Source: Escherichia coli (lineage in GTDB: Bacteria > Pseudomonadota > Gammaproteobacteria > Enterobacterales > Enterobacteriaceae). Taken from it: DNA of 64,000 bases. The notes under the pieces are model-generated. The model was not told the origin of the DNA. It did not search any database and saw only the letters and a program-made list of their open reading frames with translations. Shown here in pieces: positions 5,833 through 64,000 of the stretch. Positions within the stretch are counted from its first letter, which is position 1. Each line of letters opens with the position of its first letter. The position numbers and the translations under genes are program-made. The stretch lies in assembly GCF_009931435.1 (NCBI RefSeq), contig NZ_CP043414.1, one strand, 5' to 3'.

Positions 5833-6384
5833 ATGCAAACGAAAAAAAATGAAATTTGGGTGGGTATCTTTTTATTAGCAGCACTGCTGGCGGCGCTGTT
5901 TGTTTGCCTGAAGGCGGCGAACGTGACGTCCATGCGTACTGAACCAACCTACACGCTTTATGCGACGTTCGATAACATTGGCGGCCTGAAAGCGCGCTCT
6001 CCGGTCAGCATTGGTGGCGTTGTTGTGGGCCGGGTGGCGGATATTACGCTGGACCCGAAAACTTATCTGCCACGCGTAACGCTGGAAATTGAACAACGTT
6101 ATAACCACATTCCTGATACCAGTTCGCTGAGCATCCGTACTTCCGGCCTGCTGGGGGAACAATATCTGGCATTAAACGTCGGTTTTGAAGACCCGGAACT
6201 GGGGACTGCTATCCTGAAGGATGGCGATACAATCCAGGACACTAAGTCTGCGATGGTGCTGGAAGATCTCATTGGTCAGTTCCTTTACGGTAGTAAAGGC
6301 GATGACAATAAGAATAGTGGCGATGCGCCAGCTGCTGCGCCAGGTAATAATGAAACCACTGAACCTGTGGGTACAACGAAATAA
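5833..6384 (+). CDS. mlaD: MCE-domain phospholipid-binding protein MlaD
   Basis: ORF 5818..6384 trimmed to MQTKKNEIWVGIFLL; 183 aa. Confidence 0.92.
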   Translation: MQTKKNEIWVGIFLLAALLAALFVCLKAANVTSMRTEPTYTLYATFDNIGGLKARSPVSIGGVVVGRVADITLDPKTYLPRVTLEIEQRYNHIPDTSSLSIRTSGLLGEQYLALNVGFEDPELGTAILKDGDTIQDTKSAMVLEDLIGQFLYGSKGDDNKNSGDAPAAAPGNNETTEPVGTTK

Positions 6385-7799: not shown

Positions 7800-9059
<1,260 letters not shown>

Positions 9060-9106
9060 TCGTCCGAGAGCTGGCAGCCCCGTTCGCGGGGCTACCGCCA
9101 GACCAC

Positions 9107-9385
9107 TCATTTTTTCGGTTTAGTGTAGCTACGCATCAACTGCGTTCTGTCGATAAACTCATGGGTCTGCGGATCATGGTAGCGTGATGGCCAGATAACC
9201 CAGGGGTCAGTTCCCAGGGCTTTCGCAATAATCATCTCTCCTTTCGGCCATGGGCGCGATAATGCGTTCGCCAGCGTTGAGGAACTCAAACCATTTCTAC
9301 GAGATTCCGCCGCCATTGACGTTCCTTTCTTGCGTAAACCCGCAATGATGTCAGCGGGATGCCAGTCAATGAAATTACTTTCCAT
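9107..9385 (-). CDS. sfsB: Ner-like DNA-binding regulator SfsB (Nlp)
   Basis: 92 aa ORF MESNFIDWHPADIIAGLRKKGTSMAA. Confidence 0.9.
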   Translation of the reverse strand: MESNFIDWHPADIIAGLRKKGTSMAAESRRNGLSSSTLANALSRPWPKGEMIIAKALGTDPWVIWPSRYHDPQTHEFIDRTQLMRSYTKPKK

Positions 9386-9613
9386 CTTTCCTCACTCCTT
9401 AAGTTAGTCGCTTTCATTCAGAACACTTCTTCTGTCGAGCATCACTATACTCCTGATGGCCTATTGCTCTAAAAAGTTCCTGTAAAGAGTGTGAATATTC
9501 AGAATATATAAAGATACATACACTGGTTTTTCAGGCGTTATTACGCTGAATAAGTGTTTTTATGGAACTTATTGGAATCATCCCGCGCACTGCGCGGGAT
9601 GAGGGGGAGGGGA

Positions 9614-58807: not shown

Positions 58808-59692
58808 TTAAAGGAAATGACAGAATTTACCGACGATGCCAAGAACCACGGTAACCGCAATCAGGCGCAGCGGACTCCAGCCGCGGCGTACCAGCCAGAA
58901 CATGGTCAGGGTGTAGACCAGCGGTAAGAAGGCAGGCATCAGTTTGTCGATAACGTCAGCCTGCAGCTTAACCACTGCATCGCCCGCCGTGATTTCCAGC
59001 GTGGTGCTTAAACGAACATAGGTTGCCACCAGCGCGCCGATCACCGTCATCCCAACGATAGACGCTGCATGGCCGACTTTTTTGGTATTCGCTTTAATGA
59101 GTGGGATCGCCGCCACGCCCATGCGGTAAGCATAATGCGCCAGACCAAAACGCAGCCCCAGGTGTACCACGTTAAACAGCACAATAAACACGACTGCGCC
59201 AAGAATAGAGCCTTGCAATGCCAGACTGGCACCAATCCCGCCACAAATCGGCAGTAACGTTAGCCAGAACATGGCATCGCCAATCCCACCGAGCGGCGCA
59301 CCGACGGCAATTTTGGTGCTCTGAATACTGTTAACGTCCTGCTTAGAACGCTCCATCGCGAGGATAATGCCAATAACAAACGTCACCAGAAACGGATGGG
59401 TATTGAAGAAACCCATATGCCCCTTCATGGCGCGCGCCAGGTCGCGTTTATTAGTGTGGATCTTTTTCAGAGCAGGCAGCAGACCGTACAACCAGCCGGA
59501 AGCCTGCATACGTTCGTAGTTAAAAGACGCTTGTAACAGCATGGAACGCCAGGCGACGCGGTTGATATCTTTTTTTGTTAGCTCCGCGCCAATGCTCTGA
59601 TCTTCATACACGTTTTCATTGACGCCTGTCAGTAGTGTTTCTTCGTTTTCACTGACGTTCGGCAGGGTAGTTTGATTAGATGCCATCTTCAA
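58808..59692 (-). CDS. agaE: PTS N-acetylgalactosamine-specific EIID component AgaE
   Basis: 294 aa ORF (alternative Met 2 codons in at 59686); paralog of AgaD (shared LLQASFNYERMQA); overlaps agaW 3' end. Confidence 0.88.
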   Translation of the reverse strand: MKMASNQTTLPNVSENEETLLTGVNENVYEDQSIGAELTKKDINRVAWRSMLLQASFNYERMQASGWLYGLLPALKKIHTNKRDLARAMKGHMGFFNTHPFLVTFVIGIILAMERSKQDVNSIQSTKIAVGAPLGGIGDAMFWLTLLPICGGIGASLALQGSILGAVVFIVLFNVVHLGLRFGLAHYAYRMGVAAIPLIKANTKKVGHAASIVGMTVIGALVATYVRLSTTLEITAGDAVVKLQADVIDKLMPAFLPLVYTLTMFWLVRRGWSPLRLIAVTVVLGIVGKFCHFL

Positions 59693-60455
59693 ATTCCTCT
59701 TTCTGTGCCGCAGGTTGAGTCGGTTCAGGAGATTTACGCAGCAGGTCGATCAGCGCCATCGCCAGCGCGGCGGCAGCAATAGCCAGCACCGGTAACTTGA
59801 GCCAGGCGGCGGCAACGAAGCCCAGGATGAAGTAGGGGATATAGACGTTTTTCATCATGATTTTCAGCAGCACGGCAAAACCGATTGCTGGCATGATGCC
59901 GCCCGCGACGCCAAGGCCGTCGATTAACCGTTGCGGCAGGACATCAATGATGGTTTTTGCATGCTCCGCGCCGAAGTAGATAGGCAGGAAAGCGCAGAGA
60001 AAATAGAACGTGCCGAGTGCCAGCAATGCCAGATAGTTCACGCGTTCAATGCCGCGAGTATCGGCGTTCTCCGCCATCCGGTCGCAGCGGGACATCACGC
60101 CAGACATCACCGAGAACAGGAAGGTAATCCCCATCTGTACTGCGACAGCGAAAGGTACGGCGACACCGACCGCGACATCCGGTTTCACGCCAGTAGTAAT
60201 GGCAAACGCCGTGCCGACGATAGTTCCGATAATCACGTTAGGCGGCTGTGCGCCCGCCAGCGGTGCCAGCCCCATCCACACCAGTTCCAGCGTACCGCCG
60301 GTTAAAATACCGGTATGCAGATCGCCAAGCACCAACCCAACTAACGGGCCGAGGACCACCGGGCGGTGCATATGGGTTAGGCCGTTAAACATATCCAGGC
60401 CAGCGATAAAGGCGATAATGCCCAACGCAAATGCCTGCAACAGACTGATTTCCAT
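59676..60455 (-). CDS. agaW: PTS N-acetylgalactosamine-specific EIIC component AgaW (full length)
   Basis: 259 aa MEISLLQAFALGIIAFIAGLDMFNG; paralog of AgaC. Confidence 0.9.
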   Translation of the reverse strand: MEISLLQAFALGIIAFIAGLDMFNGLTHMHRPVVLGPLVGLVLGDLHTGILTGGTLELVWMGLAPLAGAQPPNVIIGTIVGTAFAITTGVKPDVAVGVAVPFAVAVQMGITFLFSVMSGVMSRCDRMAENADTRGIERVNYLALLALGTFYFLCAFLPIYFGAEHAKTIIDVLPQRLIDGLGVAGGIMPAIGFAVLLKIMMKNVYIPYFILGFVAAAWLKLPVLAIAAAALAMALIDLLRKSPEPTQPAAQKEEFEDGI

Positions 60456-60465
60456 GATGAATCCC

Positions 60466-60939
60466 TCAAAGTAATTTAAAGAGGTCCACAGCAGGCTCTG
60501 TCGGGACGCCCTGAACGAAGCATTCCACCCCAGCGGCTTTCAGGTCGTTAAATGCTGCGATATCGCCCGCATCCACAGAAACCGTTTTGGCGATTTGTTG
60601 CTTGCCATTGGCGTAGTGCATATTGCCAACGTTAATGCGATTCACCGGAACGCCACCTTTCACCAGCGTCAGGAAATCGGCAGGTGTTTTACAAACCAGC
60701 AGGATTTTCTGTCGATCGGCGGCGCGATGAATGTTGTCGATCACTTTTTGCAGCGTCCAGAAACGTACGGCGATCCCTTCTGCCAGCACCATTTCCATCA
60801 GGTTTTGTTGTACCGGATCTTCGGCAACCTCATCATTGGCTACCAGCACCAGATTTGCCCCCGCAAATCCGACCCACTGAACGCCGACCTGACCGTGAAT
60901 CAAGCGTTCATCAATCCGGCTTAAAACAATATTTGGCAT
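60466..60939 (-). CDS. agaV: PTS N-acetylgalactosamine-specific EIIB component AgaV
   Basis: ORF 60466..60975 trimmed to MPNIVLSRIDERLIHGQVGVQW with SD GAGGAA; 157 aa. Confidence 0.9.
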   Translation of the reverse strand: MPNIVLSRIDERLIHGQVGVQWVGFAGANLVLVANDEVAEDPVQQNLMEMVLAEGIAVRFWTLQKVIDNIHRAADRQKILLVCKTPADFLTLVKGGVPVNRINVGNMHYANGKQQIAKTVSVDAGDIAAFNDLKAAGVECFVQGVPTEPAVDLFKLL

Positions 60940-60961
60940 AGCGTGTTCCTCTTTGTTTTGC

Positions 60962-62242
60962 TTATTGGCCTTCACAGGCTGTGTGGTACTGCGCCAGGAT
61001 GTCCTGAATATGGTTGATAATGAGTTCCCGTGGCGTTGGCTGCAGCTCGCCGGAGCGAACTTTCACGTATTGCAGCGGCAGGTACTGACTGATGAGCGGC
61101 AGCGGAATTGGCGCATCCGCCAGGTTACGAACCAGATGAGCGAAAGCGTCATCAATCTGGCTGTCCGGCCAGTAATAGCGCACGCGATCCGAGTAGCTAT
61201 AACCACGCGCCAGACGACGCGCGTTGCCGTCACCGTGGTAGTGGCTTTGCCAGTATTCCGGGCGGTCGAGCATCACGTTTTCCAGCACCTGACGCAGACC
61301 GGAACAGGCTTTTGCTGGCACCAGTTCTTCTTCAATCGCCGCCAGAGAGAACAGAGCTTCACGCAGGGCGAAGGTCAGCGCTGGGCCAACTTTCAGAATG
61401 GCAAAGTGGTCAATCACCAGCTGGCGCAGCGATTGCGGCGTTTGGTAATCGGTAGAGTGCGCTTCGAAAATCAGCGTTTCGTAGTTTTCGACCATCTGGC
61501 TTAAGGCGGTCGCTTTAGCTGGCTGATAATCAATAACGTTGGTGTGATCGAATTCGACGCCGGGTTGTACCACCAGAGCAATGATGCGTGGCCAGATGGC
61601 ATTCAGACCTTGCTTTTCAAAGGCGTGACGATGGGCTTCCAGCGTGGCGCGGGCGGCATCCGGCGTAGTGACCGCCAGCTCGCTTAAGGTTTCATGCGCG
61701 CCGCCAGGTACCGGCACTTCGGTACCAATGACATACACCAGATCGGCTTCGCCAAAGTGTTCACGGCAGGTTTCTTCCGCGACTTTAGCCAGTCGGGCGG
61801 CGCGTTCAGCCACGATGTCATCGGTTAAGGGAACCGGATCGTCCTGACAGGACATGCTGCAATCAAGGTGAATTTTTTTGAATCCTGCCGCCACGTAGCT
61901 TTTAATCAAATCATCGGCATTGGCCATCGCCTGAGCTGCAGGCAGGTTTTGCCAGCGGTTTGGCCCCAGATGATCGCCACCCAGAATCAACGCGTCTTGT
62001 GGGAAATTCAATGAGTCGGCGAGCTGACAAACAAAGCCGCGAAAATCGGCGGGTGTCATTCCGGTATAACCACCGAACTGGTCCACCTGATTGGATGTCG
62101 CTTCAATCAGTAACGGTGTTTGGTTTACACTGGCGTAGCGGATTGCAGCTTCCAGCACCAGCGGGTGTGCGGAACAAACGGCATAAATCCCATTTGTTTT
62201 GCCCTCTTTGTGCTGCCTCACCATTTCTGTCAGATGTTTCAC
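60962..62242 (-). CDS. kbaZ: tagatose-bisphosphate aldolase non-catalytic subunit KbaZ (AgaZ)
   Basis: GTG start at 62242 with SD GGAGAGG, giving (M)[26 protein letters not shown]; 426 aa; ORF-track ATG at 62308 is a possible longer alternative. Confidence 0.85.
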
Positions 62243-62490: not shown

Positions 62491-63300
62491 ATGAGTAATA
62501 CCGACGCTTCAGGCGAGAAGCGAGTGACAGGCACCAGCGAGCGACGAGAACAAATCATTCAGCGCCTGCGACAGCAAGGGAGTGTGCAGGTTAACGATCT
62601 GTCGGCATTGTATGGCGTATCTACTGTGACGATCCGCAACGATCTGGCTTTTCTGGAAAAGCAGGGGATCGCTGTGCGGGCCTATGGCGGCGCGTTGATC
62701 TGCGATAGCACGACGCCGTCAGTCGAGCCATCAGTGGAAGATAAAAGCGCGCTGAACACTGCGATGAAACGCAGCGTTGCGAAAGCTGCCGTTGAGTTGA
62801 TTCAGCCAGGTCATCGGGTGATCCTCGATTCCGGGACCACCACGTTTGAGATTGCTCGTCTGATGCGCAAGCACACCGACGTAATTGCGATGACCAATGG
62901 TATGAACGTAGCCAATGCACTGCTGGAAGCAGAAGGCGTTGAACTTCTTATGACCGGCGGGCATCTGCGGCGTCAGTCGCAATCTTTTTACGGCGATCAG
63001 GCTGAACAATCGCTACAAAATTACCACTTTGATATGCTTTTTCTCGGCGTAGATGCGATCGATCTGGAGCGCGGCGTCAGCACGCATAATGAAGATGAAG
63101 CCCGTTTAAACCGTCGGATGTGCGAAGTTGCGGAACGGATCATTGTGGTCACCGATTCCAGTAAGTTCAACCGTTCCAGTTTACATAAGATCATTGATAC
63201 TCAACGTATCGACATGATCATTGTTGATGAAGGCATTCCTGCGGATAGTCTGGAAGGCCTGCGAAAGGCTGGGGTTGAAGTGATTCTGGTCGGGGAGTGA
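62491..63300 (+). CDS. agaR: DeoR-family repressor of the aga cluster, AgaR
   Basis: 269 aa; N-terminal HTH ...[17 protein letters not shown]...; divergent from kbaZ. Confidence 0.93.
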
Positions 63301-63832
63301 GAAATGGCGCCCGTAGCTCAACACGGATGTGTTCGGCGGGCATTGTTCACTGACCTTTTACAGCCTGTTTTCTGCTCAAATTAGAAACTTCAGCAAAGGT
63401 AATGCAAATGCATTATTAACAGCAGAAAGCGCCAGAACCAACGAAAAAAGAGAGCATGTTTCCCATTTTGCGAGGCGCTTTCCAAATCACCCGCTCAGTC
63501 CCCTCGCGTTGCAGTGCTAAAAGCACTATTTTGCAAATTTGTGACCTTCTTCACTCTCCCAAAAGGCGGTGATCTCACGGTGGGGATCCACTTTCTGCTT
63601 TCGCTTTTCTGCCGTTAGCACTCGCTATTTCGGCATCTCTTCTTTTCACTTTTTCAGTTTGTCATTTTCATTTGCGGTCAACCGAAAGTTCTGGAGTCGA
63701 TTTTTCCAGGTTTCAACGCCGTTGTCGCGTTCACAAATTCACTTCTTTTCTTCTGATGTAATGCATTCAAAAGAAAATGAAAGCTGCAAAATGCAAGAAT
63801 GCAACGAAATACTTTTTCAGGGAGCGATAAAC

Positions 63833-64000
63833 ATGCTAGATAGCCTAAGACGCCGCGAACAAATCATTGATTTGTTATGTGCCCAGGGAAGCGTACGCGT
63901 TGAGCCGCTCAGCATCCATTTTGGTGTCTCATCGGTCACGATCCGCAATGACTTACGGTATCTGGAGCAAAAAGGTTGCGTCATGCGTTCCTATGGCGGT
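63833..64000 (+). CDS. DeoR-family (AgaR-like) transcriptional regulator, N-terminal 56 codons only; runs off window end
   Basis: ATG 63833 with SD CAGGGAG 7 nt upstream; MLDSLRRREQIIDLLCAQGSVRVEPLSIHFGVSSVTIRNDLRYLEQKGCVMRSYGG, shares SVTIRNDL and R(A/S)YGG with AgaR; not in ORF track because no stop in window. Confidence 0.7.
   Translation, partial: MLDSLRRREQIIDLLCAQGSVRVEPLSIHFGVSSVTIRNDLRYLEQKGCVMRSYGG

Follow-up and report, generated by a model that had tools for sequence, protein, structure and literature searches.

The 64-kb window of Escherichia coli contig NZ_CP043414.1 analysed here (64,000 nucleotides) ends shortly beyond agaR, the regulator gene of the aga system for N-acetylgalactosamine (GalNAc) and galactosamine (GalN), and its last segment, positions 63420–64000, probably forms the left edge of a sugar-utilisation island that is chromosomal and rare. 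This segment carries the start of a gene for a second AgaR-like regulator of the DeoR family, here called AgaR2, together with what appears to be that gene's own promoter–operator region (Table 1). We infer that the complete island is present in this strain beyond position 64000. The locus is real and uncommon, and mechanistically ordinary.

We compared the junction (63301–64000) by megablast with 5,426 complete E. coli genomes and found full-length matches in three of them: RMDEC465 (99.4% identity), R32_14_1F (99.6%) and GF4-3 (94.7%). A sequence-only reading of the window had called the junction foreign to K-12, and this is borne out by the survey; the regulator is not an ordinary one shared at this position by most E. 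coli. The core of the island, comprising genes for a ROK-family kinase, a Gfo/Idh/MocA-family protein (Gfo) and a ChbG-type deacetylase, was found in the same three genomes only and always on the chromosome, with no copy on a plasmid. None of the three annotated copies contained a mobility gene (flanking repeats were not searched systematically), and we do not class the island as a mobile one. The locus documents a rare accessory carbohydrate island at a defined slot of the E. coli chromosome, a slot that is also used in Citrobacter.

The gene content downstream of 64000 was read from these three annotated relatives. There the island consists of seven genes, the regulator gene followed by a convergent operon IIB-IIC-GH4-ChbG-Gfo-ROK, in which IIB and IIC are subunits of a phosphotransferase system (PTS) and the ROK kinase gene lies on the strand opposite to the regulator. 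An accessory sugar locus had been suspected at this place, and in all three junction-sharing genomes the regulator indeed heads PTS, glycosidase, deacetylase, oxidoreductase and kinase genes. With NCBIfam models, the IIC protein scored 801 bits against ChbC (cut-off 760), the IIB protein 190 bits against PTS IIB (cut-off 157) and the deacetylase 350 bits against ChbG (cut-off 227), while the ROK kinase was NagK-like at 306 bits, below the cut-off of 380. The GH4 enzyme matched the solved 6-phospho-beta-glucosidases PDB 5c3m and 1s6y (E=1e-153), and the Gfo/Idh/MocA protein has 418 amino acids (L003, 14276–15532). The GC content is 48–51% for the regulator, ROK and Gfo genes and 37–45% for the part encoding the PTS, GH4 and ChbG proteins. 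The island is a mosaic.

The ribosome-binding site GGGAG, the start codon (63833–63835) and the 56 visible codons of the regulator gene were all confirmed as first described. A search with these 56 residues found them 100% identical to residues 1–56 of WP_105287720.1, a DeoR-family protein of 256 amino acids encoded by R32_14_1F and RMDEC465 and named 'transcriptional repressor AgaR' by the Prokaryotic Genome Annotation Pipeline. We assigned proteins to the AgaR subfamily when they scored above the curated cut-off and had an N-terminal DeoR-type helix-turn-helix (HTH) and a C-terminal DeoR sugar-phosphate-binding domain; of these, the HTH part is what lies in the window. The R32_14_1F protein reached 365.3 bits over residues 2–254 with the NCBIfam AgaR model NF040755 (cut-off 260), in agreement with the suspected paralogy to AgaR, and 271.5 bits with the equivalog model for E. 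coli-type AgaR (NF007316/PRK09802), which falls short of its cut-off of 351. The product of the resident agaR scored 577 bits with NF007316 and 465 bits with NF040755. AgaR2 and AgaR are 60.5% identical over 38 HTH residues and 44% identical over their full length, and the recognition-helix segment of AgaR2, VSSVTIRNDL, is nearly identical to the corresponding 10 residues of AgaR. By these scores AgaR2 is a paralogue of AgaR rather than a second copy.

Among 100,044 species genomes scanned, AgaR2 orthologues were found in Escherichia sp. MOD1-EC7003 (93% identity), Citrobacter (77–91%, mostly 91%), Enterobacteriaceae bacterium RIT691 (86%), Hafnia (78%), and Photorhabdus and Edaphovirga (75–76%). 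In Photorhabdus, Hafnia and Edaphovirga, kbaZ lies directly 3' of the orthologous regulator gene, and in Photorhabdus a complete operon regulator-kbaZ-agaS-agaV-W-E-F-kbaY was confirmed. Because these orthologues head kbaZ/aga operons, the AgaR2 clade appears to be one that regulates GalNAc genes. In E. coli and Citrobacter, by contrast, the regulator gene is monocistronic and faces a convergent operon.

We aligned 12 orthologous upstream regions from five genera (mean column identity 58%). The alignment suggests that the roughly 300 bp from 63540 to 63832 form the promoter–operator region of AgaR2 itself, conserved across these genera. The TGTGA-N6-TCAC of the CRP-like site is kept in 12 of 12 promoters, with columns G44, A45, T52, C53 and A54 invariant. 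The predicted extended -10, TGnTGTAAT, is likewise invariant in all 12, and in each of the 24 orthologues examined it is present and directly followed by the putative proximal operator O1. Within the TTTC-run tract the TTTC...CGAAAG columns (63662–63688) are invariant; its segment TCATTTTCATTTG is 92% complementary to 63768–63780, and Serratia has a perfect CTTTCGG-N13-CCGAAAG at the equivalent position. Between this tract and the -10 lies an invariant block, CACAAATTC (63732–63740), in which CACAA-TTC does not vary. Hafnia and Photorhabdus have TGTAA-N6-TCACA at this place, and the window has a degenerate left half. The promoters of the Hafnia, Photorhabdus and Edaphovirga regulator genes thus resemble that of AgaR2 in the distal TGTGA-N6-TCAC, the CTTTCG box, TGnTGTAAT and the GAAAG-N5-GAAAG that follows the -10. 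Looping from auxiliary operators is known in the DeoR family, and the operator-like boxes about 100 and 175 bp upstream of the predicted start would be arranged compatibly with such looping.

We derived an AgaR2 operator matrix from 12 non-Escherichia orthologous O1 sites. Its best site in the whole 64 kb was 63767–63784 (23.1 bits, a score reached by 0 of 300 shuffles), and the second-best match in the region, at 63597 on the minus strand, scored 12.5 bits. O1 also has the layout by which we define an AgaR2-type operator, GAAAG-N5-GAAAG directly downstream of a TGnTGTAAT -10, and is regarded as a putative site. Five of the six best matrix matches fell in the new region, the agaS promoter and the kbaZ–agaR spacer. 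Since the matrix ranks the new region first and the aga promoters next, regulatory cross-talk between AgaR2 and aga is plausible as far as the sites can tell. The operator vocabularies of AgaR and AgaR2 seem to overlap, but the sites in the new region look AgaR2-type. Two adjacent AgaR paralogues with overlapping vocabularies offer a small natural test case for regulator–operator divergence and cross-talk.

The TTTC/GAAA runs beyond agaR had been likened to AgaR operator repeats, and this likeness stands in part. The enrichment is real: 63420–63832 contains 19 TTTC/GAAA against 12.0 +/- 2.5 in dinucleotide shuffles (p=0.004) and is the densest 413-bp stretch of the window in this respect, followed by the agaS promoter and the kbaZ–agaR intergenic region. 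The match to the K-12 operator did not hold. The 24-bp AgaR consensus, WRMMTTTCRTTTYRTTTYNYTTKK, which Ray and Larson are said to have reported in 2004, recovered five sites at 0–3 mismatches in the agaS and kbaZ/agaR promoters and had six matches at three or fewer mismatches in the window against 0.15 expected; its recovery of the aga-promoter sites validates it for use here. In 63420–63832 its best match had 6 mismatches, with none at three or fewer, and 72% of 300 dinucleotide shuffles did as well, so that the tract was rejected as an AgaR operator array. Of the matches elsewhere, one with 3 mismatches at 5835–5858 lies in coding sequence at the mlaE/mlaD junction and looks like chance, and the same can be said of a CTTTC-dense stretch in or beside coding sequence at the end of murA (about 9000–9400).

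These results bear on two other explanations of the tract. It could hold resident AgaR operators, which would place the island in the AgaR regulon and let AgaR and AgaR2 cross-regulate both aga and the island. This is rather unlikely, although the nearly identical recognition helices would permit it, O1 differs by one mismatch (63769–63782) from the 14-bp AgaR core TTTCRTTTYRTTTY, the regions that share five of the six top matrix matches are also the three densest in TTTC within the window, and the promoter of the Photorhabdus orthologue comes closer to the K-12 consensus than shuffled sequence does (3 mismatches, p=0.003). Set against this are the failure of the 24-bp consensus in a region where it does no better than in shuffled sequence, its success in the true aga promoters, and the low overall identity of the two regulators; the validation of the consensus here consists of its recovery of the aga-promoter sites. 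The tract could also be a chance feature of AT-rich non-coding DNA with no regulatory role. CTTTC/GAAAG pentamers taken alone are indeed only marginally enriched (6 against 2.6, p=0.045; p=0.14 within 63531–63832), and two of the six (63425 and 63478) form the arms of an inverted repeat that is unrelated. However, the boxes occupy invariant columns of the five-genus alignment, O1 keeps a fixed distance from the -10 in every orthologue examined, and no other site in 64 kb equals it with the matrix, which makes this explanation, already disfavoured, exceedingly improbable.

IIB is preceded, at the garD end of the island, by a promoter region that shares about 300 bp of homology with that of an ATP-binding cassette (ABC) transporter operon in Citrobacter. 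Both have a CRP site (AGTGATAACTCTCACA; a strong one in the island), TTGACA as the -35, and a GAAACCTACCGAAAG box that is invariant. This box is the best matrix match in the catabolic promoter (11.3–12.9 bits, p=0.02 and 0.007). Because the promoter is homologous in the PTS and ABC versions, the uptake cassettes appear to have been swapped behind one regulated promoter. Given a putative operator over the predicted start of its own gene and boxes in both promoters, we infer that AgaR2 would act as a repressor of its own gene and of the neighbouring operon.

Under this scheme, AgaR2 would repress its own gene and also the convergent IIB-IIC-GH4-ChbG-Gfo-ROK operon from the promoter beside garD, and a phosphorylated amino-sugar intermediate would relieve the repression. 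The chb-like PTS would import a beta-linked N-acetylhexosamine disaccharide, borrowing ChbA as its IIA subunit. The ChbG-like and GH4 enzymes would then deacetylate and cleave the disaccharide, the ROK kinase and the Gfo/Idh/MocA enzyme would process the released sugar, and the products would probably feed the adjacent aga pathway. For AgaR itself, the physiological ligand has been reported as unknown (PMC4694137).

Several points weigh against an intact, AgaR2-controlled island in this strain. The window ends at codon 56 of AgaR2, and the content beyond rests on three relatives that match the junction at 99.4–99.6% (two genomes) or 94.7% (GF4-3). A scan with the two-hexamer sigma-70 consensus found no canonical -35/-10 pair, so that the promoter call depends on the conserved extended -10; the distal CRP-like site, at about -220, is unusually far from the predicted start; and at the Citrobacter and Serratia transporter promoters the matrix gave no significant match (p=0.12 and 0.31). 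No reaction could be assigned to the Gfo/Idh/MocA protein from its sequence and fold matches. The island contains neither a IIA gene nor ChbR. In RMDEC465 the IIC gene has a frameshift and agaB contains an internal stop; the frameshift indicates that in some strains the locus may be in decay. Taken further, the last two of these points, with the yhaV pseudogene of GF4-3 and the extreme rarity of the island in E. coli, would fit an inert or decaying remnant, in which an orphan regulator and a non-functional operon retain boxes inherited from the donor and unused in E. coli. We consider this quite improbable. R32_14_1F and GF4-3 have intact copies of all seven island genes, the reading frames remain open although the two E. 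coli variants of the island have diverged by about 11% in DNA over ROK-Gfo-ChbG, and both variants still have the promoter boxes. A IIA subunit could come from chbA, a gene that E. coli normally has.

The island and the loss of the prlF-yhaV toxin–antitoxin pair beyond agaR proved to have separate histories. As had been noted, the pair is missing: tblastn found no PrlF or YhaV homologue anywhere in the window, and the prlF start codon with about 76 bp of upstream DNA is its sole remnant. The non-coding stretch of some 530 bp described earlier measures 532 bp from the agaR stop to the next start (63301–63832) and has no credible open reading frame (ORF), but it is a composite, not one unit, made up of agaR flank, a deletion joint, the prlF 5' region and 413 bp of island DNA. 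Against strains that have prlF-yhaV, 63201–63346 aligned at 94.5% to the end of agaR and 46 bp downstream, and 5,142 E. coli genomes shared no more of 63301–64000 than 63336–63419, which corresponds to the start of prlF and the DNA preceding it (about 90.5% identity). The two alignments overlap in the deletion joint, which thus belongs to both the agaR flank and the prlF remnant. Its GCGGGCAT (63336–63343) occurs once 3' of agaR and once at the start codon of prlF, the CAT of 63341–63343 being the prlF ATG read on the minus strand; its presence at both original sites indicates that yhaV-prlF was removed through a microhomology deletion. The orphaned prlF 5' region also contains a palindrome, TAATGCAAATGCATTA (63400–63415).

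The island occupies a slot between prlF and garD, with its far boundary mapped at the garD stop codon. K-12-type genomes have 72 bp between the point equivalent to 63420 and that stop codon, and island genomes have 7,838 bp instead. In GF4-3, prlF and a yhaV pseudogene are kept between agaR and the island. The insertion of the island and the deletion of prlF-yhaV were therefore separate events, and the new DNA did not take the place of the pair. The island would have inserted between the prlF promoter region, upstream of prlF, and the garD stop codon, and yhaV-prlF would have been lost later in this lineage through the 8–11 bp of microhomology, a deletion that made agaR and the island neighbours.

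Table 1 Features of the agaR–island junction, in window coordinates.
Feature	Position	Strand	Remarks
agaR coding sequence, 269 amino acids	62491..63300	+	ORF; canonical E. coli-type AgaR
Retained agaR 3' flank, 46 bp	63301..63346		agaR/yhaV convergent spacer in other strains
yhaV-prlF deletion joint, 11 bp	63336..63346		two alignments to K-12-type locus overlap here
Orphaned prlF 5' region (promoter side), about 76 bp	63344..63419	-	now points into agaR 3' end
Left end of probable accessory island	63420..64000	+	K-12-type similarity stops at 63419
Inverted repeat GAAAGCGCC / GGCGCTTTC	63425..63482		9-bp arms, 40 nt apart
CRP-like site TGTGACCTTCTTCACT	63540..63555		about 220 bp upstream of predicted transcription start
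Distal operator-like boxes CTTTCTGCTTTCGCTTTT	63591..63608	+	CTTTCG box (63591–63602) conserved across genera
TTTC-run tract (TCTTTTCACTTTTTCAGTTTGTCATTTTCATTTG) ending CGAAAG	63641..63688		imperfect inverted CTTTC...GAAAG element
Conserved block TTCACAAATTCACT	63730..63743	+	position of right half (TCACA) of putative CRP site near -41.5
Predicted extended -10 TGATGTAAT	63754..63762	+	implied start near 63769
Putative proximal operator O1 TCAAAAGAAAATGAAAGC	63767..63784	+	GAAAG-type repeats; overlaps predicted transcription start
Shine–Dalgarno GGGAG	63820..63824	+	read from sequence; GGAG conserved in orthologue alignment
First 56 codons of DeoR-family AgaR2	63833..64000	+	HTH included; cut by window end

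On the resident side of the junction, kbaZ is divergent from agaR in the window, and the DNA of agaR, a gene present in 5,317 genomes, is 95–96% identical to that of most E. coli. The aga cluster of the window (59676–60975 and upstream) is the complete, non-K-12 form, with a full-length agaW (259 amino acids) and agaV present. Near-identical relatives also have agaE, agaF and a nagA-type deacetylase gene, and the K-12 version is truncated. The deletion created a chimeric minus-strand ORF of 41 amino acids that runs from 63343 down to 63218. It begins with the first three residues of PrlF (MPA) and crosses the final 83 bp of agaR in antisense; what survives of prlF, its promoter region and ATG, faces agaR. 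As PrlF is gone, the orphaned promoter could be derepressed and yield an antisense RNA against agaR. An Rfam search of 63000–64000 returned no match.

The closest counterparts of the island are in Citrobacter and in Escherichia sp. MOD1-EC7003. The Citrobacter second-regulator locus sits in the same agaR–garD slot as the E. coli island, and in MOD1-EC7003 the regulator gene lies before garD on a contig that ends upstream. Compared with the island, their regulators are 91–93%, their ROK kinases 84–86% and their Gfo proteins 83–84% identical. Uptake is where they differ: Citrobacter and MOD1-EC7003 have an ABC transporter (a binding protein, two permeases and an ATPase), whereas the E. coli island has PTS IIB-IIC with GH4 and ChbG. 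The locus thus shows rebuilding, in which an ABC cassette appears to have been exchanged for a trimmed chb-like PTS behind the same promoter, followed by loss of the toxin–antitoxin pair; it changes no major concept. The segment 63420–63540 is restricted to Escherichia versions of the locus. In MOD1-EC7003, a genome of a cryptic clade, the ABC-version locus has this same left-end segment (L005, 1–62), preceded at the contig end by an unrelated GC-rich sequence (GTGGGAAGCCTCGCCGTTTACGGCGGGGAGCAGTCAC) that may be an assembly-breaking repeat element.

The uptake genes resemble those of the E. coli chbBCARFG operon, with the same order IIB-IIC...GH4-deacetylase and identities to the K-12 proteins of 81% (IIB), 73% (IIC), 75% (ChbF) and 57% (ChbG). 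Unlike chb, the island has no chbA or chbR, is joined to Gfo and ROK genes and is apparently under a DeoR-type repressor. With IIB, IIC and ChbG above their cut-offs and IIA and ChbR absent, the cassette does not make up a full chb-type PTS chitobiose system and reads as a partial, rewired chb paralogue. The nearest ChbG proteins outside the island are 65–67% identical and in Salmonella belong to a second complete chb-like operon. This operon, IIB-IIC-IIA-AraC-GH4-YdjC, was seen between frdD and blc in some Salmonella enterica (L037 and L038, 4589–9759), and its ChbG, at 67% identity, is the nearest to the island's deacetylase outside the island.

AgaR2 shares with the E. coli AgaR regulon (Ray and Larson 2004, as cited in PMC4694137) a DeoR-family regulator with an HTH and a DeoR C-terminal domain, TTTC/GAAAG-repeat operators at a 5–10 bp phase, predicted autoregulation, CRP-like sites and chromosomal adjacency. 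A further difference lies in the presumed target, which for AgaR2 is the operon of chb-like PTS, Gfo and ROK genes and not kbaZ or agaS. A literature search on the island or junction found nothing relevant, in part because AgaR as a term is drowned out by 'agar'.

The clade of the Gfo/Idh/MocA protein has no name, and its members are about 60% identical across phyla, from Enterobacteria to Lentisphaerae and Anaerolineae, with invariant cysteines C229, C232, C238 and C282 (members P0001–P0120). Its AlphaFold model has a predicted local distance difference test (pLDDT) score of 86, and its fold resembles those of YjhC/NanOx, levoglucosan dehydrogenase and an NAD-dependent glycosidase to about the same degree (TM-scores 0.62–0.70). 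YjhC and RgNanOx, which are 2,7-anhydro-Neu5Ac (N-acetylneuraminic acid) oxidoreductases, and other Gfo enzymes are the best sequence and fold matches, yet at 15–18% identity, and the island protein lies in a separate clade. A GH109-type NAD-dependent alpha-N-acetylgalactosaminidase was considered and is not supported: there was no GH109 structure among the matches listed, and Pfam gave only the generic GFO_IDH_MocA.

Related gene neighbourhoods recur near amino-sugar genes. ABC, Gfo and ROK genes, together with the gene of a related DeoR regulator (64% identity for Serratia), lie beside agaS and either kbaY in Serratia (GH123 / ABC-Gfo-ROK-DeoR-AgaS-KbaY) or kbaZ in Photobacterium (ABC / Gfo, DeoR, ROK / KbaZ-AgaS-AgaVWE and the start of AgaF). 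In one Vibrio and two metagenomic genomes the Gfo gene stands beside an APH-type sugar kinase gene, and this pair is followed by a nucleotidyltransferase gene in the metagenomes and by a DUF4922 gene in Vibrio. AgaR2 with the Gfo/ROK pair may be the sign of a catabolic branch for N-acetylhexosamines (probably GalNAc-glycosides) that has gone unrecognised, with a new NAD-dependent step by the cysteine-rich Gfo enzyme, interchangeable ABC or chb-like PTS uptake behind one AgaR2-controlled promoter, and cross-regulation between island and aga through an operator vocabulary common to the two AgaR paralogues, an idea unlikely enough to be offered only tentatively. In such a branch the candidate Gfo step may be one in which an imported amino-sugar glycoside or anhydro-sugar is cleaved or converted. 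The clade is widespread, highly conserved, unstudied and repeatedly linked to amino-sugar genes, and its reaction is worth determining.

The island may also have been reshuffled by recombination. The window is 98.0–98.3% identical to two island-bearing genomes (L001 and L003) over 12–20 kb comprising aga and its flanks, and 99.4–99.6% over the junction; as the junction is more alike than its surroundings, the island end may have spread between lineages by more recent recombination. The two E. coli variants of the island (GF4-3, L002 21312–24295, and L003 13346–16333) are mosaic and have 89.3% DNA identity over ROK-Gfo-ChbG. At the protein level they are 97–99% identical in GH4, IIC, IIB and the regulator, 96% in ROK and 88–89% in Gfo and ChbG, and this unevenness suggests recombination with a further, unsampled donor.

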